A DNA stretch of 64,000 nucleotides from a virus: the IMG/VR virus record IMGVR_UViG_3300045988_135160. One strand, given 5' to 3'. Position numbers and translations under genes: made by a program. The notes beneath the pieces are model-generated. The model was not told the DNA's origin and made no database searches. It saw only the letters and a list, made by a program, of their open reading frames with translations. Shown piece by piece: positions 8,009 through 57,929 of this stretch (the first letter of the stretch is position 1; every line of letters begins with the position of its first letter).

Positions 8009-8088
8009 GTATGAGAAGGAGATTTTTTAATGCTGCGGATAATTTCGTGGGAGGATGTTATAATAAGTTATCCAATGAAGATAGGTGA

Positions 8089-8112
8089 GGTGATTATATA
8101 CCACTTTACACC
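8089..8112. repeat. left 24-bp terminal inverted repeat / conserved 24-mer (reverse orientation)
   Basis: 23/24 match to the reverse complement of 9412-9435. The same 24-mer also occurs at 49288-49310 and 57552-57575. Confidence 0.7.
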
Positions 8113-8134
8113 AAAAGCGTAAAGTAATACATAT

Positions 8135-9358
8135 TTATACGGAAATCCGTACTGGGTTCCACCAAAACCCTCTACCTTCTGGTAACATCGTTACATCAAA
8201 GGATTCTTTTGCTGATTTTCTAATGATGTTAAAAGCACCATTGATATCAGCATTAATAGTCCTACCAAACGAGGTTTTAAACAATCCTCGTTTGGTCCTT
8301 CTTCCTTTGTAAGATTCATGTTTACAAATCCGTTCATTATCCAAAAAGCTACATTTTGAAGTATAAGATTCTTCAACAATCTTAACATTAATACCTTCTA
8401 ATGTTGCTTTATACGATATCATACTGATAAACGAATTAAAAGGAATAGATACAAAGTTCTGATTATTTCGTTTTCCGATATTGATCTCTTGTTTCCAGCA
8501 TTTGTTATGACCGATTATGATCGTATTAATACCATTGGAAACTACGTGATTAATCAATATCCTACTCGCTTTGTGAAGATAATCTTTGATCTTGTTATTT
8601 CTTTTGTTGGTTAATGACCTGATTTGTTTTGAAGTATGTTTATTATCTTTTAATTTAGATTTTAAGAATGCTAATCTTTTATTATAATATTGGTTGATAG
8701 ACTTTAGTGGTCTACCATTGATAATAAAACAAGAACCTGTGTTTGAAACACAAGAAGCTAAATTATCTAATCCTATGTCGATGCCAAGATAGTTCCCATT
8801 ATCGGACATAAGATCTTTTTCCTTCTTATTGTAAACTATTTCAAGAACAATATATCCATTCTTAGGAACGAATCTAAGTTGTTGAATATTTTGTTTATTG
8901 GTTCTTGTTGTAAAAGAAAACTGTTTTGGTAACTTAACAATACCTTGTTTTATCCATTTTTGAGAAAAAGCGATTGTTGTAAAAACAGCAGTAAACAAAC
9001 CATTTTTGTTAAGATACCCAGGCATTCTAACAAATTCAGAATACTCACCTCTATTCTTTTTATTTAAAAGATTGAAGAATGATCTAAAGTTTCTATCTAC
9101 CATCATCAACACTTGCTGAGCAACCGGTGTTGGTAAAGCACGATAGTCGACATCATTTTCTATTCTTAGTTTCTTTTCGAGAGAATAATAATTGAGATAT
9201 TTGTACTTTACAGTATTATCATCCTTGTATTGGAAATAGTGTTGTCTAACAACATACAATCCTTTGTTGTATAAGTTTTTACACTTATGCAATAGGTCTT
9301 GAAGCTCATTGTAATATATTGAACTTTGTTTGATTATATGTTGTTCAACTAATCTCAT
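8135..9358 (-). CDS. tnpB: TnpB (OrfB, IS605 family RNA-guided RuvC nuclease), copy 1
   Basis: RuvC-I LGIDIGLDNLA, RuvC-II VEESYTSKC, zinc finger CSFLDNERICKHESY, RuvC-III INADINGAFNI. Probable start is MRLVEQ (9358) rather than the track start 9397, by analogy with copy 2 (MRLVYKF). Confidence 0.85.
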   Translation of the reverse strand: MRLVEQHIIKQSSIYYNELQDLLHKCKNLYNKGLYVVRQHYFQYKDDNTVKYKYLNYYSLEKKLRIENDVDYRALPTPVAQQVLMMVDRNFRSFFNLLNKKNRGEYSEFVRMPGYLNKNGLFTAVFTTIAFSQKWIKQGIVKLPKQFSFTTRTNKQNIQQLRFVPKNGYIVLEIVYNKKEKDLMSDNGNYLGIDIGLDNLASCVSNTGSCFIINGRPLKSINQYYNKRLAFLKSKLKDNKHTSKQIRSLTNKRNNKIKDYLHKASRILINHVVSNGINTIIIGHNKCWKQEINIGKRNNQNFVSIPFNSFISMISYKATLEGINVKIVEESYTSKCSFLDNERICKHESYKGRRTKRGLFKTSFGRTINADINGAFNIIRKSAKESFDVTMLPEGRGFWWNPVRISV

Positions 9359-9411
9359 GACACAAATGTAGGAATTATTATTTATATAAAAAAACAATTT
9401 CTTATATTTGT

Positions 9412-9435
9412 GGTGTAAAGTTGTATATAATCACC
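9412..9435. repeat. right 24-bp terminal inverted repeat / conserved 24-mer GGTGTAAAGTTGTATATAATCACC
   Basis: Inverted partner of 8089-8112. Lies 14 nt upstream of the ATG at 9449. Confidence 0.7.
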
Positions 9436-11783: not shown

Positions 11784-11917
11784 ATATATGTACGTATATC
11801 AATAACATACAAGAAAAGTTAGATTTTCATTGTTTATGAATTATTTTTGTTAAGTTTGCAATATTAGTTTCAGGAAGGGATTATGGAAAGGTGATTATAT
11901 ACCAAAAATAAAACAAT

Positions 11918-24770: not shown

Positions 24771-26028
24771 TTATAAGTTTCCGGATATATTCATTTTGTA
24801 AAATACATTCGTAATCCTTACCGGGTTAAACAATAACCCTCTATCGATTATCCTACGAATTGATTCACAGGAATCACCGACTACTTTTCTCATAATGTTT
24901 AATGCTCCATTTATGTCTGCATTTATGAGTTTTCCTACCGAGGATTGAAACAATCCTCGGTTCTTCCTCTTTCCTAAATAGTTTTCATGTTTTCCTATCT
25001 TCTCAAATGCTAATGAATCACATTTTGAAGTATATGACTCTTCATGAATAACTATTTCAATACCAGCTAATTCACATTTATATTCTAAGTAACTCACCAA
25101 TCTCGCAAAAGGGATTTGTGTGAATTTCTGGTTATTCCTTTTTCCCATATTCACATTCTGTTTCCATCCCTTGTTATAGCCTACAACTAATTTTGTTATC
25201 TTAGAATCGACAAGCAAATCAACTATCTTTCTACTGATTTTATGAAAGACATCTTCTATGTACTGTTCCCTATCATAATATAATTTCTTTATTCGCTTTG
25301 TTATTCCTTTTATCTTTTGTAAATCCTTGATACTATTTAATTTAGCAAGTGTTTTATTAAATAATTGATTGTATGATTTAACAAATTTACCACTAAACAA
25401 AACAGTAAAATCCTCACTTACTAATGTTGCAAGATTATCAATCCCTAAATCGATTGAAGCAACTTTCTCTTCCCTACATTTAGATACTCCAGTATCTTTT
25501 ACCTCATAAATGATTTCTATTTTATATCCACACGCTAATGGTTTTATTCTAATCTGTTTGAAATCTTTTATCAAATCAGAATACTTTTCATATTGAGGAA
25601 TACTTATTGAAATATCTTTTGATAGGATTATTTTTCCATCTTTTATTTTGCAACTCTGATTCGTGTAATACAAATTAAATTCAGATCCTCTTTTTTCTAT
25701 AACTTGGAAGGCCTGGTTTTTCCCTATACTTATTATAATTTTTCTTGTAATCTTGGACCGATTTGTAGTAACCTTTAATGTTTTTATCAAGAATACGAAG
25801 AATTTGTTGTGAACATTGCGCCTTTAATAATTTGTAATTAATATCTCCATCCAAATTCTTGGTATTTTTCATGATAGCATCAAGTTCAAAATAGGACAAC
25901 CACTTATCTTCTTTAGAAAGTGTTTCTCTGAAAATATACAATGCCTGATTGTACAAGTTGTTGCTAATCTTGCATAAAGATGATATATTTTCATTTTGTC
26001 CTATGTTAAACTTATATACTAATCTCAT
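24771..26028 (-). pseudogene. tnpB: TnpB copy 2, disrupted by a frameshift (N-part 25681-26028, C-part 24771-25790)
   Basis: The two overlapping ORFs together align to TnpB-1. They share MRLVYKF, SIDLGIDNLA, EESYTSKC, CDSLAFEKIGKHENY and INADINGALNI. The frame switches within the run at 25691-25696. One extra base there would give a single roughly 430-aa ORF. Confidence 0.75.
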
Positions 26029-36298: not shown

Positions 36299-37558
36299 TT
36301 ATTCGTTATTATGTGTATTTGCTTTATATCCATATGATTGATCTACTTCAATAGAAGTCAATCCATGTCCTATATATTTTAATTTTTTATATGATATATT
36401 TTTCTCATTTTCCCCATCTATATCTTTTATTTTAAAACTACCAGAAAGTCTTCTTGCGTAAATAAATCGTTTTTCACCATAAAACATTACTTTATCAAAT
36501 AGTCTAAACCCAAATACCCTAAATGGTGATTGATTCATTCTTTTGATCCCTCCCTTTTGCATCTTCATTTTATGAATTTGCCTATTATGTCTCCGTGTGA
36601 GTTTCATCTTGAAATGATATCCAAGCCTTTTTGCTTTAAAATTCTCTGAGATAACAAATGCATCAGAAACATGGGACTTTTCGATTCTATGTTTTATCCG
36701 ATTATGTTTCGTTATATATCCAAATGTCATACTAACGTTTGGATATAATGACTTCAATTTATCGAATAACTTCCATTTCATGATTCCCATCGCGGCCGCA
36801 TCACGAAGTGAAGTTCCTCTTTTTACCTTCAATTTAATATTCCCCTTATGGTACTCCTTATGGCAAGTTTCACATAAAGTAATCAAATTAGAAGGTGAAT
36901 CTCCACCAGTCTTTCGCGATTCGATATGGTGGATATTAAGAATAGGATTTTTCGATTTTCCCTTACAATGCTGGCATTTGTGACCATCACGAAAAAGTAT
37001 GTATTCTCGAACATTCCAAAATCCAAGTTGCTCGCCTTGCTGGTATTCTTTTCCCAATATATCAGGATTCTTAATCTTTTGAGTATCAAACTGAGAAGTT
37101 TCTATAATTAATCTTGAAACAGGAAGGATAGAATGTATAAAACTGACAACCTTAATATGGGAATCAATTTTTTGACAAACAGATGGAGCTATCCATCCTT
37201 GGCGCTTCGACTTTATTCTGTTATTAAATCTCGGCTTTCTATACCTTATCCTATTCCTTCTCGCTTTCCTCAATTCTCTTCTTGTCGAAAGCAAATTAAT
37301 GATATCATTTCTCAGAATAACTTCACTTGCGTAAAGCTCCTTGCTTTTCGTCGTAGCTGATAGACCAACATGTTTAGTTCCAGCATCAACGCCTAACACA
37401 ATTTCCTGTTTGTAATCAGATGTGACGTACATTAATTTGATGGTAAACGGACATAAGTTGACAACAACTGCCTTTTTGTCTTTAAGCAGTCTTCTAACCT
37501 TACCATGCCTTGTTGTTGGCATCAAAGGTTTACCATCTATGTCTTGTACGTACACCAT
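36299..37558 (-). CDS. iscB: IscB RNA-guided nuclease (PLMP, split RuvC and HNH), copy 1
   Basis: N-terminal DGKPLMPTTRHGKVRRLLK (PLMP domain). RuvC-I LGVDAGTKHVGLSA. HNH CQHCKGKSKNPILNIHHIESRKTGGDSPSNLITLCETCHKEYH. RuvC-III SHVSDAFVI. Size of 419 aa is typical of IscB. Confidence 0.85.
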   Translation of the reverse strand: MVYVQDIDGKPLMPTTRHGKVRRLLKDKKAVVVNLCPFTIKLMYVTSDYKQEIVLGVDAGTKHVGLSATTKSKELYASEVILRNDIINLLSTRRELRKARRNRIRYRKPRFNNRIKSKRQGWIAPSVCQKIDSHIKVVSFIHSILPVSRLIIETSQFDTQKIKNPDILGKEYQQGEQLGFWNVREYILFRDGHKCQHCKGKSKNPILNIHHIESRKTGGDSPSNLITLCETCHKEYHKGNIKLKVKRGTSLRDAAAMGIMKWKLFDKLKSLYPNVSMTFGYITKHNRIKHRIEKSHVSDAFVISENFKAKRLGYHFKMKLTRRHNRQIHKMKMQKGGIKRMNQSPFRVFGFRLFDKVMFYGEKRFIYARRLSGSFKIKDIDGENEKNISYKKLKYIGHGLTSIEVDQSYGYKANTHNNE

Positions 37559-37810
37559 TTGTTACAAACTAATTTTTAATTAATAACTACTATTCGTAGT
37601 AAGTCAGATATATTTCAATCTGTTAGTACCCATCGCCAATGTTATTCAGAGGTTTCTTACAAGCAACACTGTATCCAAATACAAATACTGTTTAATCACC
37701 TGCCTTAGAGCCTGGAGCTTGGATAAACACTCCAGGGTAACTATACATTCTCCGATAACGTAGTGCTCGAAGCACTTAGGCTAATAACCGGCCAGTAAAA
37801 CTGGATATAC
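36377..37810 (-). mobile_element. non-autonomous IS200/IS605-like IscB element 1 (iscB plus upstream omega-RNA block; boundaries approximate)
   Basis: Similarity to copy 2 extends from about codon 394 (YKKLK) through the roughly 230-nt upstream conserved block, then stops. Confidence 0.45.
37559..37810 (-). ncRNA. putative IscB omega-RNA (guide at the 5' end, about 37791-37810)
   Basis: Non-coding block immediately 5' of iscB-1, conserved with the block 5' of iscB-2. Two hairpins show compensatory changes: CCTGGAG/CTCCAGG versus CTACGAA/TCCGTAG, and GTGCT/AGCAC versus GTGTT/AACAC. Confidence 0.55.
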
Positions 37811-37843
37811 AAAAAAGTAAAATTCTATTTGTCTTTTTGTATA

Positions 37844-38119
37844 TTATTTCGGAGATCTTGCATTTTTGTCACCTTTCGTATCCGACTTGGATCCCCTATT
37901 AGCTTTTACTGATTTATACCTAAGACCGTTCTTGGTATGAGAACAATCCTTGCCTTTCCTCCAGCCCTTGCCCTTCTTCTTGTCCGTTTCGTAGTTTTTA
38001 CGACCAAGCTCCCGGCGTTTGGCTTTCTGTTCCGGTCTGGCATTTATCTCCTTGTCCTTTTTAGCCTTTTTCTTCCTGGCTTCTGGATGAGTCCTGTAGT
38101 ACTCTGTTGATCTGCCCAT
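37844..38119 (-). CDS. highly basic Lys/Arg-rich small protein (91 aa)
   Basis: ORF with more than 35 percent K+R. Confidence 0.4.
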   Translation of the reverse strand: MGRSTEYYRTHPEARKKKAKKDKEINARPEQKAKRRELGRKNYETDKKKGKGWRKGKDCSHTKNGLRYKSVKANRGSKSDTKGDKNARSPK

Positions 38120-42340: not shown

Positions 42341-42827
42341 TCTTCTTCTCGCCTAATTTTTCAGCTCCCTTCTGAAGATCATATTTGAATACGTCAATGA
42401 TCTTCGTTTCAGCAATAGCTTCGCAATTCCAGTCGCCTAACGTGCCCTGCATGCCTTTAGTCAACACAGCTTCGGCATCCTTGGGATTGCCGGCCTGGAC
42501 ATACATATAGCATGGTGTTTTCTTTTCTTTACCTTTCTTTTCATCCAGTGTAATGTAATTCACCTTACACTTATACCAGTACTCAGCTTCTCCGTTGAAG
42601 AAGATTTCCGACACTTTAATAGGATTTATTTTAACAATGTCGAACACTTGAAATAAATCCTTGAAAATCTCTAAAGATCTTGATTCTGCCTCTGTATAAG
42701 ATAAGGCATCTACCAAATACTTTTCAGTTACCTTCTTTTTTTTGCCGTTCTCGATATTATCAATCTCGGCTTTTACTGTGATTTCAAACCAACGATTCAT
42801 GTCTATATTTTTATTCAAATTAATCAA
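42330..42827 (-). CDS. hypothetical protein (165 aa)
   Basis: ORF. Its start overlaps the iscB-2 stop. Confidence 0.45.
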   Translation of the reverse strand: MINLNKNIDMNRWFEITVKAEIDNIENGKKKKVTEKYLVDALSYTEAESRSLEIFKDLFQVFDIVKINPIKVSEIFFNGEAEYWYKCKVNYITLDEKKGKEKKTPCYMYVQAGNPKDAEAVLTKGMQGTLGDWNCEAIAETKIIDVFKYDLQKGAEKLGEKKSEE

Positions 42828-44050
42828 TCCATTTCCTTTTGTACCATAAAGCGTTTACACCTTGATAATTTCAATTTCTTGTATGTAATATCTCTTTGGT
42901 TTTTACCATCAATATCTCGAATATTAAAACTACCGGTTTTACGCCTTGCGAATATAAAATAATAACTGTTTTCAAACATAACCCTATCAAACAATCGGAA
43001 ACCAAAAACTTCAAAAGGAGATTGATTTGGTCTTTTTATCCCTCCTTTTGGAATCTTTTGTTTATGGATCTGACGATTATGTCTTCTTACTAATCTTACT
43101 TTATAATAATATCCTAACCTTATAGCATCAAAGTTTTTAGAAATAACAAATGCATCGAAAACATGAGATTTTTCAATACCATGTTTAATCCTATTGTATT
43201 TTGTAACATAACCGAAAGTCATAGAAACTCTGTTGTATTTAGACCTTAGTTCTTCATACAATCTCCATTTCATTATTCCCATTACGGCTGCGTCGCGAAG
43301 CGACGATCCCCGTTTGATCTTTAAATCTATATTACCTTTATGGTATTCTTTATGACAAGTTTCACATAAGGTAATAAGATTAGATGGGGAATCTCCACCT
43401 GTCTTTCGTGATTCAATATGATGAACATTCAATACTGGGTCTTTTGACTTTCCCTTACAATGCTGGCATTTATGTCCATCTCTTGCTAAAACATATTCCC
43501 TAACGTTCCAAAATCCAAGTTGATCACCCTCCTGATATTCTTTACCTGATATATTAGGATTGTTAATCTTTTGAGTATCAAATTGAGCTACTTCGATAAC
43601 AATACGAGATATTGGTAATATAGAACATACATTGTCAATAACACGAATATGGGCGTCTACTTTGTATTTCACCGAAGGTGCTACCCATCCCGGACGCTTA
43701 CTTTTTATTCTATTATCAAAACGAGGTTTTCTATATCTCAATCTATTTCGTCTTGATCTTCGTAGCTCCCTTCTGGTAGACAAAAGATCTACGATATCAT
43801 TTCTAAGGATAACTTCACTGCTGTAAAGTTCTTTGCTTTTCGTTGTAGCCGATAGACCAACATGTTTAGTACCAGCATCAACGCCTAACACAATTTCTTG
43901 TTTGTAATCAGATGTTACGTACATTAATTTGATGGTAAACGGACATAGGTTTACAACGATTGCCTTTTTGTCTTTAAGCAGTCTCCTAACCTTACCATGC
44001 CTTGTTGTAGGCATCATAGGTTTACCATTTATGTCTTGTACGTACACCAT
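42824..44050 (-). CDS. iscB: IscB RNA-guided nuclease, copy 2 (about 80 percent identical to copy 1)
   Basis: Same PLMP, RuvC and HNH motifs (MVYVQDINGKPMMPTTRHGKVRRLLK; CQHCKGKSKDPVLNVHHIESRKTGGDSPSNLITLCETCHKEYH). C-terminus diverges from copy 1 after YKKLK. Confidence 0.85.
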   Translation of the reverse strand: MVYVQDINGKPMMPTTRHGKVRRLLKDKKAIVVNLCPFTIKLMYVTSDYKQEIVLGVDAGTKHVGLSATTKSKELYSSEVILRNDIVDLLSTRRELRRSRRNRLRYRKPRFDNRIKSKRPGWVAPSVKYKVDAHIRVIDNVCSILPISRIVIEVAQFDTQKINNPNISGKEYQEGDQLGFWNVREYVLARDGHKCQHCKGKSKDPVLNVHHIESRKTGGDSPSNLITLCETCHKEYHKGNIDLKIKRGSSLRDAAVMGIMKWRLYEELRSKYNRVSMTFGYVTKYNRIKHGIEKSHVFDAFVISKNFDAIRLGYYYKVRLVRRHNRQIHKQKIPKGGIKRPNQSPFEVFGFRLFDRVMFENSYYFIFARRKTGSFNIRDIDGKNQRDITYKKLKLSRCKRFMVQKEMD

Positions 44051-44300
44051 ATCTACAAACGTTTTTAATGTTTATTCAACATAAGTCAGAGTGAAACTCT
44101 GTTAGTACCCATCGCCAATGTTATTTAAGGTTTTTTTTGTAAGCAACACTGTTCCTGAATACCAGAACTGTTTAATCACTTACCTTAGAGCTACGAACTT
44201 GGGCAAACATCCGTAGGTAACTATCTATTCTTAAATAACGTAGTGTTTGTTTCAACACTTAGGCTAATAATCGGAATAGCTTTTGGCTATTATGCATAAT
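42869..44300 (-). mobile_element. non-autonomous IS200/IS605-like IscB element 2 (boundaries approximate)
   Basis: Extent of nucleotide and protein similarity to element 1. Confidence 0.45.
44051..44300 (-). ncRNA. putative IscB omega-RNA, copy 2 (guide about 44281-44300)
   Basis: Conserved with 37559-37810. Compensatory stem changes support a structured RNA. Confidence 0.55.
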
Positions 44301-48191: not shown

Positions 48192-48992
48192 TTAGTTAGA
48201 TACAAATATACAAGTTTTACTAAGATACCCTTCTGTCATCTCTATAAAGTTCACACAATCTAATTTGCTTAACTTGTAAATCAATGCCGGATTGTGTACT
48301 ATGGCTATAATTTGTGTTTGTGGTTTATGGAATGACAATACATTATAAATTTGCATTATGTTGTCAATGTCAAGATTCCTATCTGGCTCATCCATGAGAA
48401 CCGTGTATTCAAAACTGCTTTCTGTTAATGTTATGCGGTTTCTTTCATAATACTTCAACAGGTTATCAATTCTTTTAATCCAAAACGCATTTGATTTTTT
48501 CTTGTATTCTACAAGATCTTGTATTGGAAACGTATAATCCTTTTGACCGAACATTAAATTGAAAAGTGATTCCAATGATAACACCACTTTCTCTCCATAA
48601 GATCTTCTAATATTATTCACATACAAATCTAAGTTGCTGATGTTTTTCAATACACTATCTCGATTCATCTCCGCCGATGGCAATAAACGGAATACTTTCC
48701 CTGCATAATCGGATGATATGTCAATCCCATCAAGAACCTTGTCATCATCATCATCAAATATAGGTGGAAAATCCAGTGCCTCGATCGGTATTTCAGAGCA
48801 CATGGATTTCTCACATAACGCATACATTGATATGATGTTAAGCAAAGTTGATTTTCCACTACCGTTTTTACCTACAATCACATTCACTCCTGGCTTGAAA
48901 ATAAATTCTCTACCATTTTCAAACGCTTCTATGTCAGAAACGTATTCAAAAGGAGTTTTTGTATTGTCTTTTATTTTTACTTTATATATCAT
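48192..48992 (-). CDS. P-loop ATPase (ABC/AAA_21-like)
   Basis: Walker A VGKNGSGKSTLL, Walker B/D-loop LMDEPDRNLD, H-loop IVHNP. Confidence 0.6.
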   Translation of the reverse strand: MIYKVKIKDNTKTPFEYVSDIEAFENGREFIFKPGVNVIVGKNGSGKSTLLNIISMYALCEKSMCSEIPIEALDFPPIFDDDDDKVLDGIDISSDYAGKVFRLLPSAEMNRDSVLKNISNLDLYVNNIRRSYGEKVVLSLESLFNLMFGQKDYTFPIQDLVEYKKKSNAFWIKRIDNLLKYYERNRITLTESSFEYTVLMDEPDRNLDIDNIMQIYNVLSFHKPQTQIIAIVHNPALIYKLSKLDCVNFIEMTEGYLSKTCIFVSN

Positions 48993-49287
48993 TTTATACT
49001 GGCTATGTTATAAAACATACGGATGTTATTTAATTTCATATTTTTCTTCTCTAACTTTGTTTTACTCAATCGAATCATATAGTCCCTTGTTTCGGACAAG
49101 ACGGTTGGGTAAAAGAGGTCTTTGATATAAGGTTTTACCCTAAAAAAATATTCGTTGGGTAAGTAAAATCAAAAACGTTTTGTTTAGTAAAAGAATCCGG
49201 TGATCTCACTTTCGAGCAACCGGTAGAGGGTATTGGTGATACCCAGTATGAAGTTTCATACAAATGTATATTGTTTTACGCTTTTTT

Positions 49288-49310
49288 GCGTAAAGTGGTG
49301 TATAATCACC
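49288..49310 (+). repeat. solo copy of the conserved 24-mer (GCGTAAAGTGGTGTATAATCACC) with an upstream hairpin
   Basis: Matches 9412-9435 and 57552-57575 at more than 20 of 24 positions. Preceded by TTTACGC-tttttt-GCGTAAA hairpin, as in the copy at 8084-8134. Confidence 0.6.
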
Positions 49311-54051: not shown

Positions 54052-54465
54052 TTAAAAGAAACTCCAACAAAATGTTACGATAAATTCTCCCATTCCGTAT
54101 TCAGCAAGTTGCTTAAACGATTCTATCCCATTGCAGTAACAAAAAACATCATCATTGTCATCATCGTTGATGTTCAATGATAGTTTCATTGTCTTTCTTT
54201 GTTCATCTCCTGTCTCTTTCCGTACAATCTGACATTCTACGTATTCAGGCTCCTTCCCTGTTCTTTCTACAAATTCATGAAACCTTAAATCAATTTCATG
54301 TTTGACTTCTTCAATGTTGGATATTATCACCTCGTTTTCACAATTCGAGCAAATAGCATGCATGAAAGATCCATCAAAATAATCTATTATTTTTCCGGTA
54401 TTCGGATTTACTATGGCTTCACAGGCAACATTTGTTCCACCACATCTTGTACATATATATCCCAT
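54052..54465 (-). CDS. zinc-ribbon protein (137 aa)
   Basis: CTRCG ... CSNC pairs. Confidence 0.45.
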   Translation of the reverse strand: MGYICTRCGGTNVACEAIVNPNTGKIIDYFDGSFMHAICSNCENEVIISNIEEVKHEIDLRFHEFVERTGKEPEYVECQIVRKETGDEQRKTMKLSLNINDDDNDDVFCYCNGIESFKQLAEYGMGEFIVTFCWSFF

Positions 54466-54609
54466 AATTATCTGTTTTTAAAATGTTCAACAATTTCATC
54501 TACTGTAGTCTTACGCCACACAAAGCAGGCCGCATCTCCCATAAACCGGAGCTCTTCGCACTTTATCCACTTGTCTCCTGTGGCGTCCGTCACTATCAGC
54601 CATTATAAC

Positions 54610-55419
54610 CTATTCTTCTAAATCATTCTCTATCATAACTTCCTTTATCAATTCATCTGTCTCCTCGTAACATCCCCAGCAAGAATCAACCTCTTCCCAT
54701 TCTTCACAATCTTCATCCTCTCTTGATTCGTCTTTGTATTTCTTGGTAAATGCTACCTTCTTTTCAAGAACGTACCCTTTTACATCTCCCCACATCCACA
54801 TACCTATGGACTTTACTTCATTATCTATAATTTTGGCACAATCTTCTTTCCAGTCTCCTTCCTTATCGCAGACTTCATTATCATATTTTTCTTTTGTAAC
54901 GTATGCTATCCCTTTTATATAATCACCTTGACTATAACCCCTTGTTGACCACTCTATAGCCACCACATCTTTTCCATATTTGGATATGATATCTAACAGG
55001 TCTTCATCATCCAGATCCTCTATTAATTCCCCTCTGCAATCAAAGTCCGTCAAATCACTTGGAAAAAACTCTTGACCTATATATGGACTTGTCTTATGCT
55101 TCAACTCCCATACATTGCTACCTCTGTTGTATGTGAATGAGATCCCATTCGCTTCCCCTTTCTTTAAATATTTTACAATGTCTTTCTGTTCTATATGCTT
55201 CATTACAATAGCATCAATAACATCTCTAAGATTATGCTTGTTATCGTAGAAGAAAGTTTTCCAATTGCATTCATCATGCAATCGATGCATATCAGAGTAT
55301 TCAAAAAAGAATGACCCAAACAAACCCCAATTAGTTATAGGGCATTCTGAATCACGGCAATAATACACTTTAATGCGATAATCACCTACTTCTTTTGTTG
55401 TAATAAGATCGTCTTCCAT
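54610..55419 (-). CDS. hypothetical protein (269 aa)
   Basis: ORF track only. Confidence 0.5.
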   Translation of the reverse strand: MEDDLITTKEVGDYRIKVYYCRDSECPITNWGLFGSFFFEYSDMHRLHDECNWKTFFYDNKHNLRDVIDAIVMKHIEQKDIVKYLKKGEANGISFTYNRGSNVWELKHKTSPYIGQEFFPSDLTDFDCRGELIEDLDDEDLLDIISKYGKDVVAIEWSTRGYSQGDYIKGIAYVTKEKYDNEVCDKEGDWKEDCAKIIDNEVKSIGMWMWGDVKGYVLEKKVAFTKKYKDESREDEDCEEWEEVDSCWGCYEETDELIKEVMIENDLEE

Positions 55420-55430
55420 GTCTTTATATT

Positions 55431-55883
55431 TTAAATAGTTCTTAATTTTTCTTCGATAAATTCATCTATTACATCATAGTATGAGCCATCAAAATCCCCA
55501 TATTTCTCTGTAAACTCTTTAGCCCACTCTTGAATGATGGCAAATGCCTCTTCCCTGCTACATTCTTTTAATCCCATTAGATCATCCACGGCTATCACCG
55601 ACATCTCTTGCAGATTTCGTAAATAATTCAAATCTATGCTATATGGTAGCTTGCCTACTTCTATACATACATAATGACCTTGTTTAAAGGCATCCTGCAA
55701 GTCTTCAAGACTCTCTATCAATGACTCAGACTCATCATCTATTCTTATCTTGTATAACTCAAAATCTTCATTTTCTGCCGACACCCATATCTTATAGGCT
55801 TTTTCGTTGGACAATCTTTTCCAAACAAATCCGTCACTGAATACAATTAGGCTACCTGTTACTATCGTATTTTTCATAACCAC
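55431..55883 (-). CDS. hypothetical protein (150 aa)
   Basis: ORF track only. Confidence 0.45.
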   Translation of the reverse strand: MVMKNTIVTGSLIVFSDGFVWKRLSNEKAYKIWVSAENEDFELYKIRIDDESESLIESLEDLQDAFKQGHYVCIEVGKLPYSIDLNYLRNLQEMSVIAVDDLMGLKECSREEAFAIIQEWAKEFTEKYGDFDGSYYDVIDEFIEEKLRTI

Positions 55884-55885
55884 TT

Positions 55886-56200
55886 TTAATCTGTTATTCT
55901 GTAATAATAATCAAGTTCTTCTCCCTTAAAGTTGTTCATGGCATACTCGTCAGCTTCTCGCCACAACCGGTCATACAATGCAGCCAGTTCGCGATCACCT
56001 TCATAATGCTGCCAGATTTTATGATTCAATACAAGCGTTAATTCCGTGAAAAACTTATAATCATCTTTCCATTCATTAAACGCACGTCTGTAGGTATCCT
56101 TGACACCTGCTATACCATACTTGTCGGCTATGCTGAAATCTTCCCAAAAGGTAGTCATTAGGTTATAGCCCACTTCTTTCATAAATTCTTTGAATGTCAT
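55886..56200 (-). CDS. hypothetical protein (104 aa)
   Basis: ORF track only. Confidence 0.45.
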   Translation of the reverse strand: MTFKEFMKEVGYNLMTTFWEDFSIADKYGIAGVKDTYRRAFNEWKDDYKFFTELTLVLNHKIWQHYEGDRELAALYDRLWREADEYAMNNFKGEELDYYYRITD

Positions 56201-56325
56201 AAGCTATTATTTTAGGTATATAATTACCTCATTAAATTTTTGAAGGTAGTTATATACAATATTATACCAACCATGTTGTAGAACATAAAGTAAAATAGTA
56301 TATATCTTATTTTAATCACGTAATT

Positions 56326-57558
56326 TTGTATCATAAAACTGATAAGGAAATGATTAAAGGTTACAAATATAGATTAGATCCTACACCGGAACAGATTGTC
56401 CAAATGGAGAAAACATTTGGATGTTGTAGGTATGTCTATAATTGGGCTCTTGATCTGAAAATTAAAACTTATCAGGGTGAAAAAAGATCTTTGTCAGCAG
56501 TTGATTTATGCAAGCAGCTAACATTACTCAAAAAAGATGAGAACCATCTTTGGCTAAATGAAGTATCTAATGAATGCTTGCAACAATCTATACGCTGTAT
56601 GGATAGTGCCTTCACCAAATTCTTTAGAGAACATACCGGATTTCCCAAATTCAAATCCAAACATAGGGATAAGAACGTTTTTAAGAATGTCAATTCTGTT
56701 AAGTTTGATTTTGAAAATAACAGAGTTAAGATTCCTATCATTGGTTGGGTAAAGTTTTTTGCCAATCGGTCCTTTGAAGGTGAGATTGGTACGATAACAA
56801 TATCTAAATCATCAACCGGTAAGTTTTATGCAAGTGTCTTAATAGATGACGGTATTCCTAATCCTGACAAATTTGCTATCAATTCCGATACAACAGTAGG
56901 AATTGATGTGGGAATTAAGGATTTCGCCGTCTTATCCAATGGGCAGGTTTTTAGTAATCCGAAGTATTTGGAATCTGTGCAGAAAAGATTAGGATGCTTG
57001 CAAAGAAGGTTTAGTCGCAAACATAAAGGAAGCAACCGATACAAGAAGGCAAAACATGATATTGCCGTTTGTCATGAACGGATTCGAAACCGTAGACAAG
57101 ATTTCTTACACAAGGTCAGTAAGAAGATAGTAAGTGAAAACCAAACTATTATCATCGAAGATCTTAATGTAGAAGGTATGTTGAAAAATCATTGCCTTGC
57201 TAAGGGTATTGCTTCTGCATCTTGGAGCGAGTTCTTCAGGATGCTGCAATATAAATCAGATTGGCGCGGTGTTAATTTAATTCGGATAGGTAGATTCGAG
57301 CCGAGTTCTAAGATGTGCGGATGTGGATACATACATCGTGATCTTAAGTTATCGGATCGAGTATGGACTTGTCCTGAATGTGGCGCCGTCAATGATCGTG
57401 ATTTACTTGCAGCGAATAACATTAAAAGATTTGGGTTAGAAAAGAAGAATCTTCTAACCCAAGAAAATATTAACAAGACACCGGTGGTGAACCGGGAGGG
57501 GGACGTGGAGTTGTCGGCGGTAGCCGGAGCTGTGAAGCGTCAAAATGTACTGGTGTAA
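56326..57558 (+). CDS. tnpB: TnpB (IS605 OrfB family), copy 3, from a different subfamily than copies 1 and 2
   Basis: N-terminal YRLDPTPEQ HTH. RuvC-I VGIDVGIKDFAVLSNG. RuvC-II IIIEDLNV. Zn finger CGCGYIHRDLKLSDRVWTCPECG. RuvC-III NDRDLLAANNI. Opposite strand to the surrounding genes. Confidence 0.85.
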   Translation: MYHKTDKEMIKGYKYRLDPTPEQIVQMEKTFGCCRYVYNWALDLKIKTYQGEKRSLSAVDLCKQLTLLKKDENHLWLNEVSNECLQQSIRCMDSAFTKFFREHTGFPKFKSKHRDKNVFKNVNSVKFDFENNRVKIPIIGWVKFFANRSFEGEIGTITISKSSTGKFYASVLIDDGIPNPDKFAINSDTTVGIDVGIKDFAVLSNGQVFSNPKYLESVQKRLGCLQRRFSRKHKGSNRYKKAKHDIAVCHERIRNRRQDFLHKVSKKIVSENQTIIIEDLNVEGMLKNHCLAKGIASASWSEFFRMLQYKSDWRGVNLIRIGRFEPSSKMCGCGYIHRDLKLSDRVWTCPECGAVNDRDLLAANNIKRFGLEKKNLLTQENINKTPVVNREGDVELSAVAGAVKRQNVLV

Positions 57559-57929
57559 ACTGGTATATAATCACCTTCTCTTATATCTTTATATTCTTCT
57601 GGTCGTTTTCTGTTACCGTCTTTTATATAATTTACCCACAGTCTATCTTCTATGCTCTTAATCGCATTCTCTATAGTAAATTCGTCGCTGACACACATTA
57701 AACACGAAGACCCTGTTTTCTTATGTGGTTTATATACCCTTGAAAAAGACCACATTTTTATCCTGTCGTATATATATCCGTTGTTTGGATAAACGAATCC
57801 TATCCGGCTGTCACCTTCTTTGGCATAAAATACACCTGGCTCCTTCCCGCCCTTTCTATATACTACGAATCCTTTTTCTTTTAGGATCTTAACCACTTTA
57901 TTTAATTTATTTTCTACGTTCATTTTCAT
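57540..57929 (-). CDS. hypothetical protein (129 aa); C-terminus encoded by the 24-mer
   Basis: ORF. The last codons (GDYIPVYTSTF) read through the reverse complement of the 24-mer and overlap the tnpB-3 3' end. Confidence 0.45.
   Translation of the reverse strand: MKMNVENKLNKVVKILKEKGFVVYRKGGKEPGVFYAKEGDSRIGFVYPNNGYIYDRIKMWSFSRVYKPHKKTGSSCLMCVSDEFTIENAIKSIEDRLWVNYIKDGNRKRPEEYKDIREGDYIPVYTSTF
57552..57575 (+). repeat. conserved 24-mer GGTGTAAACTGGTATATAATCACC overlapping the tnpB-3 stop codon
   Basis: Near-identical to 9412-9435 and to the reverse complement of 8089-8112. A partial direct copy, GGTATATAATTACCTC, lies at 56215-56230 upstream of tnpB-3. Confidence 0.65.

Follow-up and report, generated by a model that had tools for sequence, protein, structure and literature searches.

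A TnpB gene, tnpB-3, and the element that carries it were analysed in a 64,000-nucleotide stretch of viral DNA (IMG/VR record IMGVR_UViG_3300045988_135160), which is called the window below. Its source is an epsilon crAss-like gut phage, a relative of csAssE-Sib (OR575929). The stop codon of tnpB-3 (TAA, 57556-57558) lies inside a 24-mer, GGTGTAAACTGGTATATAATCACC, at 57552-57575 on the + strand. The 24-mer was also matched at 8089-8112 (-) with one mismatch and at 9412-9435 (+) with two mismatches, where it forms inverted repeats around a second gene, tnpB-1. No match was found in 100 shuffles of the sequence. A first-pass annotation, made by a model from the letters alone, had placed the 24-mer over the tnpB-3 stop codon and had equated it with the terminal inverted repeats (TIRs) of tnpB-1, and both statements held. 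It had also assigned tnpB-3 to a different clade than tnpB-1 and a third gene, tnpB-2, and had read an N-terminal helix-turn-helix (HTH) and a zinc finger in its protein.

These assignments were consistent with the protein comparisons. TnpB-3 matched the Pfam domains HTH_OrfB_IS605, OrfB_IS605 and the zinc-ribbon TNB (Cas12f1-like_TNB). No HTH match was obtained with Pfam for tnpB-1 (8135-9358) or tnpB-2 (24771-25790). TnpB-3 and TnpB-1 could be aligned over 145 residues in all, with 23% identity, compared to 41% between TnpB-1 and TnpB-2. TnpB-3 matched the ISDra2 TnpB structures (8bf8/8exa/8h1j) with E=1.7e-72 in phmmer. Its GIDVG, IEDLN and NDRD motifs were aligned with the RuvC motifs GVDLG, VEDLN and HDRD of the designed homolog 9yyg. 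The RuvC-like D/E/D and the zinc-ribbon TNB expected of a TnpB nuclease fold were found in TnpB-3; TnpB-1 was assigned by its Pfam matches, and no PDB sequence matched it. On these results, TnpB-3 is a close relative of ISDra2 TnpB with intact RuvC motifs.

Boundaries of the tnpB-3 element and its relatives

The right boundary of the element was exact. In 80 of 80 IMG/VR relatives of the minus-strand gene at 57540-57929, native sequence was found where the window changes at 57576, and the 24-mer was present in none. Because all 80 relatives carried the native sequence TTTGTTGGTAGC... there, the 24-mer is foreign to the insertion site. Homology to csAssE-Sib picked up again immediately behind the 24-mer, with base 57576. 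It had been offered as an alternative that both TnpB elements had inserted at copies of a phage motif. This was not supported, since native sequence and not the motif stood at the 57575/57576 junction in every relative. On the left side, an inverted and imperfect copy of the 24-mer was found at 56245-56268, and the arms 56242-56269 and 57551-57578 (28 nt) were 79% complementary. Comparison with L084 and related loci placed the left breakpoint at about 56244/56245, which is the start of the inverted copy. Judged from this comparison, the inverted copy marks where the tnpB-3 element really begins on the left.

The complete genome of csAssE-Sib failed as an empty-site reference, as window positions 54239-57575 stand in for about 550 bp there. 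The insertion site was resolved with closer IMG/VR relatives instead. Relatives with 99% identical flanks (e.g. L084) carried 1780 bp with five small phage genes where the window has 56245-57575. The tnpB-3 copy of the window thus appears to be associated with an adjacent deletion of 1.8 kb of phage DNA. The minus-strand gene was altered as well. In the protein alignment its product ended ...REFVGSFTKFYSSVELVEVK, compared to ...REGDYIPVYTSTF in csAssE-Sib, and the earlier reading that the reverse complement of the 24-mer encodes the C-terminus GDYIPVYT of this open reading frame (ORF) proved correct. The left flank fitted the flank consensus of the tnpB-3 family, AAA/T-N7. A right copy of the expected target-site duplication (TSD) matching TTTTTGAA was missing in the window, which was consistent with a later deletion. 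The state before the deletion was not recovered by a right-junction search of viral and metagenome contigs, and the deposited-phage collection gave no DNA match to the tnpB-3 element.

The ends were compared among homologous loci of related gut crAss-like phages, about 50 for tnpB-3 (at least 65% identity) and 80 for tnpB-1. The 1331-bp tnpB-3 unit was found with conserved tips in many different flanks. Every tnpB-3 locus, in diverse genomic contexts, ended ...GTCAAAATGTACTGGTGTAAAYTGGTATATAATCACC, and all scorable loci began GGTAATTATATACAATTTTACACC. The 24-mer was kept as the final 24 nt whatever the flank (...GGTGTAAAYTGGTATATAATCACC). The flanks were unrelated outside the tips, and the left divergence started exactly at the first G of GGTAATTATATACAATTTTACACC. 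TnpB-3 homologs at 40-43% identity had different ends. The tnpB-1 units measured 1346-1350 bp with the tips GGTGATTATATACAACTTTACACC ... GGTGTAAAGTGGTATATAATCACC, and they were conserved up to these ends, where the flanks diverged. The TIR match was 21/24 for the tnpB-3 family consensus and 22-23/24 for tnpB-1. Absence of the 24-mer from the homolog ends of both subfamilies, combined with its occurrence at sites free of TnpB in related phages, had been named as the result that would make it a phage motif; the homolog loci were checked for this, and the 24-mer was there. The proposal that unrelated TnpB elements share a terminal module was right in substance, as the module forms the right end of each in homologs of both families.

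Duplications of 8 bp were observed at the insertion sites. At 18 of 78 unique sites, the 8 nt adjoining the left tip were identical to the 8 nt that follow the right tip, and 7 of 8 positions agreed at 9 more. Randomly re-paired flanks gave 0.6% (8/8) and 0.7% (7/8). Duplication lengths of 6, 7, 9 and 10 gave no matches, and 8 alone fitted. Perfect duplications occurred in both families, for tnpB-3 at L165, L197 and L207 and for tnpB-1 at 15 unique sites. Sites with unmatched duplications, including those of the two TnpB copies of the window, kept the usual flank type on each side. This pointed to recombination between copies, which later exchanged or deleted flanks. IS200/IS605 and IS607 are excluded by the combination of TIRs and a constant 8-bp duplication, and a DDE transposase is indicated instead. 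An AAATW-N6 block upstream of the left end was considered as a promoter or as part of the element and was rejected, because its T is position 1 of the duplication.

A transposase with the same ends was found in sister elements. When the assembled DNA of the relatives was scanned for tip pairs, short units and two units of 3.3-3.5 kb were obtained besides the 1.3-kb TnpB units. The element at L152 8891-12203 had the tips GGTGATTATATACAACTTTACAC... and ...GGTGTAAAGTTGTATATAATCACC and a perfect 8-bp TSD, GTTTTTTA. Its transposase gene (L152 11011-11934) has a product of 307 aa that matched DDE_Tnp_IS1595 (E=2.9e-42) and Zn_ribbon_IS1595, and lipoprotein-like passengers were carried as well. The IS1595 transposase was present in many related phage contigs, in identity groups of 98-100%, about 71% and 52-55%; its bacterial homologs reached at most 56% identity. 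Among 57 transposase loci examined, 43 were delimited by TIRs of the type GGYAAYTATATAY...TTTACA, the left tip of L348 being doubtful, and 16 of the 43 showed a perfect 8-bp duplication. These elements spanned 2.4-5.5 kb with varying passengers, and no TnpB was found in them at the surveyed loci, where elements of 2.8-3.2 kb were checked for a TnpB in cis. The hallmarks of IS1595, as given in PMC8101967 citing Siguier 2009, are 8-bp TSDs and a transposase with a zinc finger and a DDE domain. On the sequence evidence, the 24-mer is the TIR of a phage-borne cut-and-paste DDE transposon of the IS1595 family. The TnpB units are best described as non-autonomous members of this family. Their shared ends and duplication length suggested that they are presumably mobilised in trans.

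Two further observations concerned the transposase elements and the left end. The passengers (L152 9308-10397; L322, L328, L353, L358) were mostly small predicted lipoproteins or outer-membrane-like proteins (OMP_b-brl-like, DUF5640). In tnpB-3 elements (e.g. L164), and likewise in the transposase group of 52% identity (L353-L363), the start codon lay 106 nt from the left tip. The left end of tnpB-3 forms a subterminal hairpin, TTTTACA...TGTAAAA, like half of the 54-bp TIR-TIR palindromes described below. Both features hint at a tnpB-3 gene that took the place of a transposase ORF within a pre-existing frame.

Predicted RNA scaffolds and flank motifs

The right ends were folded using RNAalifold with 22-23 non-identical segments per family (22 for tnpB-3). 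Five helices were predicted in each family over the last 115-145 nt of the tnpB sense strand. In the fixed structures, 98.2% of cells were paired in both families, compared to at most 49% (tnpB-3) and 55% (tnpB-1) with slid partners, which gave 32-55% overall. Compensatory cells numbered 28 in tnpB-3 and 18 in tnpB-1, compared to 8.6 and 4.0 in shuffles. Five pairs of the tnpB-1 terminal helix showed compensatory changes. Many pairs were G.U, which would be A.C mismatches on the opposite strand; therefore, the structures fit the sense strand only. In the terminal hairpin of tnpB-3, 57546-57554 pairs with 57559-57567, and the 3' arm is the inner right TIR. Just the last 6-8 nt (AAUCACC) next to the flank were unpaired in both families. 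The terminal helices of the two families were in different registers, which meant that each RNA was adapted to the common TIR in its own way.

The predicted structure overlapped the tnpB 3' end, and its helices ended 6-8 nt short of the element boundary, as required of an omegaRNA scaffold. Rfam returned nothing for the RNA regions of the TnpB genes, whether the whole window was searched at gathering thresholds or 57250-57650 at E<=1. The predictions make it very likely that the scaffold of the guide RNA has the right TIR as its 3' end, and the guide should start at about 57576. The first-pass annotation had raised the possibility of a scaffold 3' end, and this part is very likely right. The 24-mer is not an RNA module as such but a TIR: it stands at both ends of both TnpB elements, is accompanied by 8-bp duplications and also bounds transposase-bearing and TnpB-less elements.

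Flank motifs were counted as the 4-mer at positions -11 to -8 from the left tip, which comprises three bases and the first base of the duplication. Related sites were removed by clustering. AAAT was present at 13 of 19 tnpB-3 sites, compared to 1 of 38 tnpB-1 sites and 1 of 42 transposase sites (background 0.9%), and the enrichment had p ~1e-7 in both comparisons. TWAT was present at 22 of 38 tnpB-1 sites, compared to 1 of 19 tnpB-3 sites (p = 1e-4) and 9 of 42 transposase sites (p = 1e-3), with a background of 1.7%. The transposase elements showed a weak symmetric preference, T at duplication position 1 and A at position 8. The TnpB-bearing elements had an extra, strong and asymmetric signal on the left side. 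The copies of the window conformed, with AAAT at 56234-56237 for tnpB-3 and TAAT for tnpB-1. Since the three classes share TIRs and presumably the transposase, the simplest reading of a class-specific motif is that it belongs to the cargo, as a target-adjacent motif (TAM). These results suggested that AAAT and TWAT are putative TAMs of TnpB-3 and TnpB-1 and that homing is TAM-dependent.

The unoccupied allele was consistent in layout. There, the motif lies directly 5' of the single 8-mer copy and the right flank, i.e. the would-be guide sequence. The sequence of the unoccupied allele was AAA followed by TTCTCTTATATCTTTA. The candidate target TTCTCTTATATCTTTATATT, preceded by AAA in unoccupied relatives, was matched at 20 of 20 positions in 9 of the 80 loci. 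It had one mismatch in another 57 of the 80, and the flank was aacAAA in 56 of these 57.

Table 1. Features of the tnpB-3 element, the tnpB-1 element and related sequences in the window
Feature	Position	Strand	Remark
tnpB-3 element	56245..57575	+	1331 bp, non-autonomous IS1595-type, tnpB-3 the sole gene
Left TIR of tnpB-3 element, GGTAGTTATATACAATATTATACC	56245..56268	+	pairs with 57551-57578; slightly degenerate in the window copy
Right TIR of tnpB-3 element (24-mer)	57552..57575	+	contains the tnpB-3 stop codon
tnpB-3 coding sequence	56350..57558	+	402 aa, ISDra2-like TnpB (Pfam domains and phmmer)
Left flank	56234..56244	+	AAAT (56234-56237), then 8-bp block TTTTTGAA (56237-56244), expected TSD copy
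Predicted tnpB-3 omegaRNA (right-end element RNA, reRNA) scaffold	57430..57575	+	five helices; 57568-57575 (UAAUCACC) unpaired
Predicted guide-encoding segment, TTCTCTTATATCTTTATATT	57576..57595	+	native phage DNA, 3' part of the minus-strand gene; guide role putative
Phage gene	57540..57929	-	native C-terminus FVGSFTKFYSSVELVEVK replaced by 11 residues, GDYIPVYTSTF, from the right end of the element
tnpB-1 element	8089..9435	-	1347 bp; right TIR 8089-8112, left TIR 9412-9435, coding sequence 8135-9358
Predicted tnpB-1 omegaRNA scaffold	8089..8202	-	16-bp terminal helix with the inner TIR as 3' arm; last 6 nt unpaired
Solo 14-nt terminal remnant (putative), GGTATATAATTACC	56215..56228	+	14 nt upstream of the ATG of the minus-strand gene 55886-56200
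Second solo 14-nt remnant (putative), GGTATATAATCACC	11890..11903	-	14 nt upstream of a + strand ATG
TnpB-less miniature element	48978..49310	+	about 330 bp; tnpB-1-type 3' RNA segment and right TIR; left tip decayed

Proposed mechanism and its rivals

Based on the above results, we consider it probable that epsilon crAss-like phages harbour a TIR transposon family of the IS1595 type. In this explanation, the TnpB elements and the TnpB-less miniature element at about 48978-49310 are non-autonomous members that were inserted in trans; the omegaRNA of the TnpB elements is built on the TIR, and these elements likely home. The autonomous members would carry the IS1595-family transposase and passenger genes. 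A transposase from such a sister element would act in trans and insert the TnpB unit with an 8-bp duplication. The two unrelated TnpB genes would have been captured independently as cargo. The omegaRNA scaffold would then have been rebuilt on the right TIR, with its inner 16-18 nt pairing upstream as the terminal hairpin and the last 6-8 nt left single-stranded. TnpB and the RNA would be expressed from the unit, and the guide would be read from the flank, from about 57576. When insertion falls just 3' of the TnpB motif, the complex would most likely cleave those alleles of co-infecting relatives that lack the element. Repair by recombination would copy the element into the cut allele, or the rival genome would be damaged. 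Motif-adjacent insertions would spread in this way and dominate the sampled sites. Recombination between copies would produce shuffled flanks, the 1.8-kb deletion, miniature derivatives and solo remnants. The model corresponds to the "non-restorative homing" discussed in PMC13565253. A more specific version states that a phage transposon of the IS1595 type captured a TnpB-omegaRNA pair twice, that the guide begins in the TSD, that AAAT and TWAT are read-outs of the TAM, and that homing and not the transposase decides the spread. We put this version forward tentatively, as a serious possibility that falls a little short of being favoured.

Several observations weigh against the proposed mechanism. 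The tnpB-3 and tnpB-1 copies of the window lack matching duplications, and a later rearrangement must be invoked for both. The exact right junction of the window's tnpB-3 was not found elsewhere among the viral and metagenome contigs searched, and its spread is undocumented. No transposase gene was found in the window by Pfam on 10 large ORFs or by whole-window tblastn. The transposase was not found in the complete csAssE-Sib genome either, although a full tnpB-1 element is present there at 64111-65459. Mobilisation in trans would therefore need a transposase from co-infecting genomes, or would be historical in those lineages. In addition, the flank motifs could in principle reflect shared site ancestry left after de-duplication.

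The 24-mer could also be a native regulatory motif of the phage, a promoter or 5' leader that recurs between genes, with the TnpB elements inserted beside copies of it or having captured them. This explanation would account for two solo 14-mers at 56215-56228 and 11890-11903. For both, the distance to a downstream ATG is exactly 14 nt, read on the strand with GGTRATTATATACC, a spacing that also counts against the transposon explanation to the extent that some copies are possibly regulatory too. The copy upstream of the 55886-56200 homologs was present in several relative groups that differed in upstream context. However, native coding sequence free of the motif stood at the tnpB-3 right junction in all 80 relatives, and the motif always stood at the end of a discrete unit, opposite an inverted partner and together with an 8-bp duplication. 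The 14-mer upstream of the same gene was absent in the L153, L126, L095 and L114 groups, and in L091 a 54-bp TIR-TIR palindrome took its place. The fixed presence upstream of genes in all relatives that a promoter would show was found neither at the tnpB-3 junction nor at the 55886-56200 homologs. The flanks of the solo copy at 56215-56228 also fitted the insertion-site consensus. We consider a native regulatory motif very unlikely as the origin of the 24-mer.

A purely RNA-level explanation was weighed in the same manner. Here the 24-mer would be a 3' scaffold module swapped between omegaRNAs, with no role in DNA transposition, and it would spread by homing or recombination only. The covarying RNA structure contains the right TIR in both families, and the many copies without matched duplications show that recombination shuffles flanks; both points speak for this explanation. 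However, the same sequence is present in inverted form at the left end, where no guide RNA ends. It also bounds transposase elements that have neither TnpB nor an omegaRNA-like segment, and dozens of unrelated sites with fresh 8-bp duplications require real transposition. This explanation was judged very unlikely.

Ordinary TnpB-only elements of IS200/IS605 (IS1341-like), moved by a Y1 TnpA with the 24-mer as a subterminal hairpin or cleavage site, were considered because TnpB-3 is close to ISDra2 TnpB. Moreover, both right ends show a hairpin and a short tail that are superficially IS608-like. As in ISDra2, IS608 and IS607 elements, the omegaRNA is predicted to overlap the tnpB 3' end and to stop at the right transposon boundary, and the guide would come from flanking DNA with a TAM 5' of the insertion. 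However, IS200/IS605 elements have no TIRs or TSDs and are placed by a Y1 TnpA 3' of a fixed target of 4-5 nt (PMC13565253, section 5.1), in contrast to the 24-bp TIRs and exact 8-bp duplications found here. The hairpins are rich in G.U pairs and differ in register between the families. No Y1 transposase was seen, and identical ends are carried by the IS1595 transposase elements. The IS608-like reading of the hairpins was rejected on the TSDs and the G.U pairs. IS607, which uses a serine-recombinase TnpA and also lacks TIRs and a TSD (PMC6188088, PMC13565253), did not agree with the TIRs and TSDs either. An origin in IS200/IS605 seems extremely improbable.

The transposon explanation was compared with known systems. 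The text of Altae-Tran et al. (2023, PNAS, PMC10691335) describes DDE-associated TnpBs bounded by inverted repeats and solo TnpBs with the ends of transposase copies, and PMC13565253 names ISL2, IS630 and IS1031 as DDE families with TnpB association. The likeness is that the TnpB lies in an inverted-repeat transposon with its 3' end within reach of the transposon end, and that solo units have ends nearly identical to transposase copies, which implies mobilisation in trans. The present family is IS1595 with an 8-bp TSD, which is not named in the main text of PMC10691335. Here TnpB and the transposase were never found in one unit, and all parts of the system reside in crAss-like phages. One TIR frame serves two unrelated TnpB lineages, so that the preference of the transposase is separable from the TnpB motifs. 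Similarly, IS1595 insertion sequences and their passenger derivatives (Siguier et al. 2009, as cited in PMC8101967) are described there with 8-bp TSDs, TIRs of about 24 bp and, in some, passengers. The sister elements share their N-terminal zinc ribbon and DDE_Tnp_IS1595 transposase. In contrast, the units of the window carry an RNA-guided nuclease gene and no transposase. The titles and abstracts of papers that mention both TnpB and IS1595 made no mechanistic link apparent.

Fanzor1/Fanzor2* proteins (Yoon et al. 2023, NAR, PMC10711439; Bao and Jurka 2013, PMC3627910) are likewise nuclease cargo of non-autonomous TIR elements with short TSDs. They occur in eukaryotic and giant-virus transposons, with copies in viral genomes, and their guide-RNA scaffold is reported to incorporate the folded right TIR (PMC10711439). 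The Fanzor TSD is reported as part of the scaffold, with the guide after it. In contrast, the family-specific motif lies 5' of the TSD here, which suggested a guide start at the TSD or no more than one base away from it. The proteins also differ, as those of the window are ordinary prokaryotic TnpBs.

DDE-associated TnpBs have thus been described before, and the present case is a new and well-resolved example and not a new kind. What it adds is the phage-resident system of the IS1595 type, the two unrelated TnpBs in one TIR frame, RNA scaffolds that converge on the TIR, and flank motifs linked to TnpB that stand apart from the preference of the transposase. A common DDE transposase would explain the identical ends of two TnpB genes as divergent as tnpB-3 and tnpB-1. 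IS1595, in an abundant group of human-gut phages, joins the few prokaryotic cases of TnpB on elements with TIRs and TSDs, which are otherwise best known for eukaryotic Fanzors. One transposase with two TnpBs and many TnpB-free elements is a natural experiment that sets target choice against the selection imposed by TnpB. "Non-restorative homing" of obligate mobile element-guided activity (OMEGA) elements between co-infecting phages becomes directly testable, and TAM (AAAT, TWAT) and scaffold predictions are provided for two compact nucleases, one of them ISDra2-like. The elements would also remodel crAss-like genomes through gene truncation, the 1.8-kb deletion, miniature elements and solo remnants. 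If RNA-guided homing is true, it would be the bacteriophage equivalent of the partnership between Fanzor and TIR transposons.

Remnants, miniature elements and other nuclease genes

A shorter direct copy had been noted upstream of tnpB-3 in the first-pass annotation. The sequence is there, at 56215-56228, and GGTATATAATTACC was identical to the final 14 nt of the 24-mer at 13 of 14 positions. However, it lies outside the tnpB-3 element, in the phage flank common to TnpB-free relatives. We read this copy and the one at 11890-11903 as solo terminal remnants of the transposon. Solo transposon tips may have been co-opted as promoter, leader or regulatory elements.

TIR tips also bounded several units without a full TnpB gene. 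These were units of 323-329 bp that keep the tnpB-1-type 3' segment (the L093 unit having a perfect duplication), a 431-bp internal-deletion derivative, units of 183 bp and TIR-TIR palindromes of 51-64 bp. The miniature element at 48978-49310 shared 86% identity over 329 nt with the 323-329-bp units of L083 and L093; with the final 125 nt of the tnpB-1 element it shared 75%. In L189 (2711-2965 and 3001-4226), three family members lie nested or next to each other: a miniature element of 183 bp, whose 8-bp duplication is perfect, a TIR-TIR palindrome of 64 bp and an element of the tnpB-3 type.

At the tnpB-1 site, window positions 8012-8088 encode a 25-codon stub (MRRRFFNAADNF...) that is followed by the tnpB-1 element. 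csAssE-Sib has a gene for 192 aa there, MRRRYEDVSS... (cf. L162 2697-3275). The intact gene in csAssE-Sib, compared to the stub in the window, meant that the tnpB-1 copy of the window was also tied to the loss or replacement of a phage gene. In L263, a tnpB-1 element lies about 20 nt from the tnpB-1 site of the window, in the opposite orientation. The central part of tnpB-1 gave distant DNA matches (65-67%) to Prevotella phage Lak-A1 (MK250015, about 296610-297136) and to gp662 of Bacillus phage G. These matches indicated TnpB-1-like nucleases in other large phages. The paper on crAssE-Sib (PMC11054128) goes no further than a listing of two TnpB "transposases".

No copy of the 24-mer TIR was found near tnpB-2. 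In the tnpB-2 region (24771-26028, -; coding sequence 24771-25790), the N-terminal third was in another frame, with tblastn pieces of 1-118 and 136-406, and the gene is probably frameshifted or a pseudogene. Two IscB-like genes (RRXRR and HNH domains) were found at 42824-44050 (-) and 36299-37558 (-), giving five OMEGA-type nuclease genes in the window together with the three TnpB genes. Each IscB-like gene was preceded by HEARO, the IscB omegaRNA, at 44101-44293 (-) and 37622-37847 (-), with 113 and 101 bits, above the Rfam gathering score. The two IscB units were 74% identical to each other over 1.4 kb.

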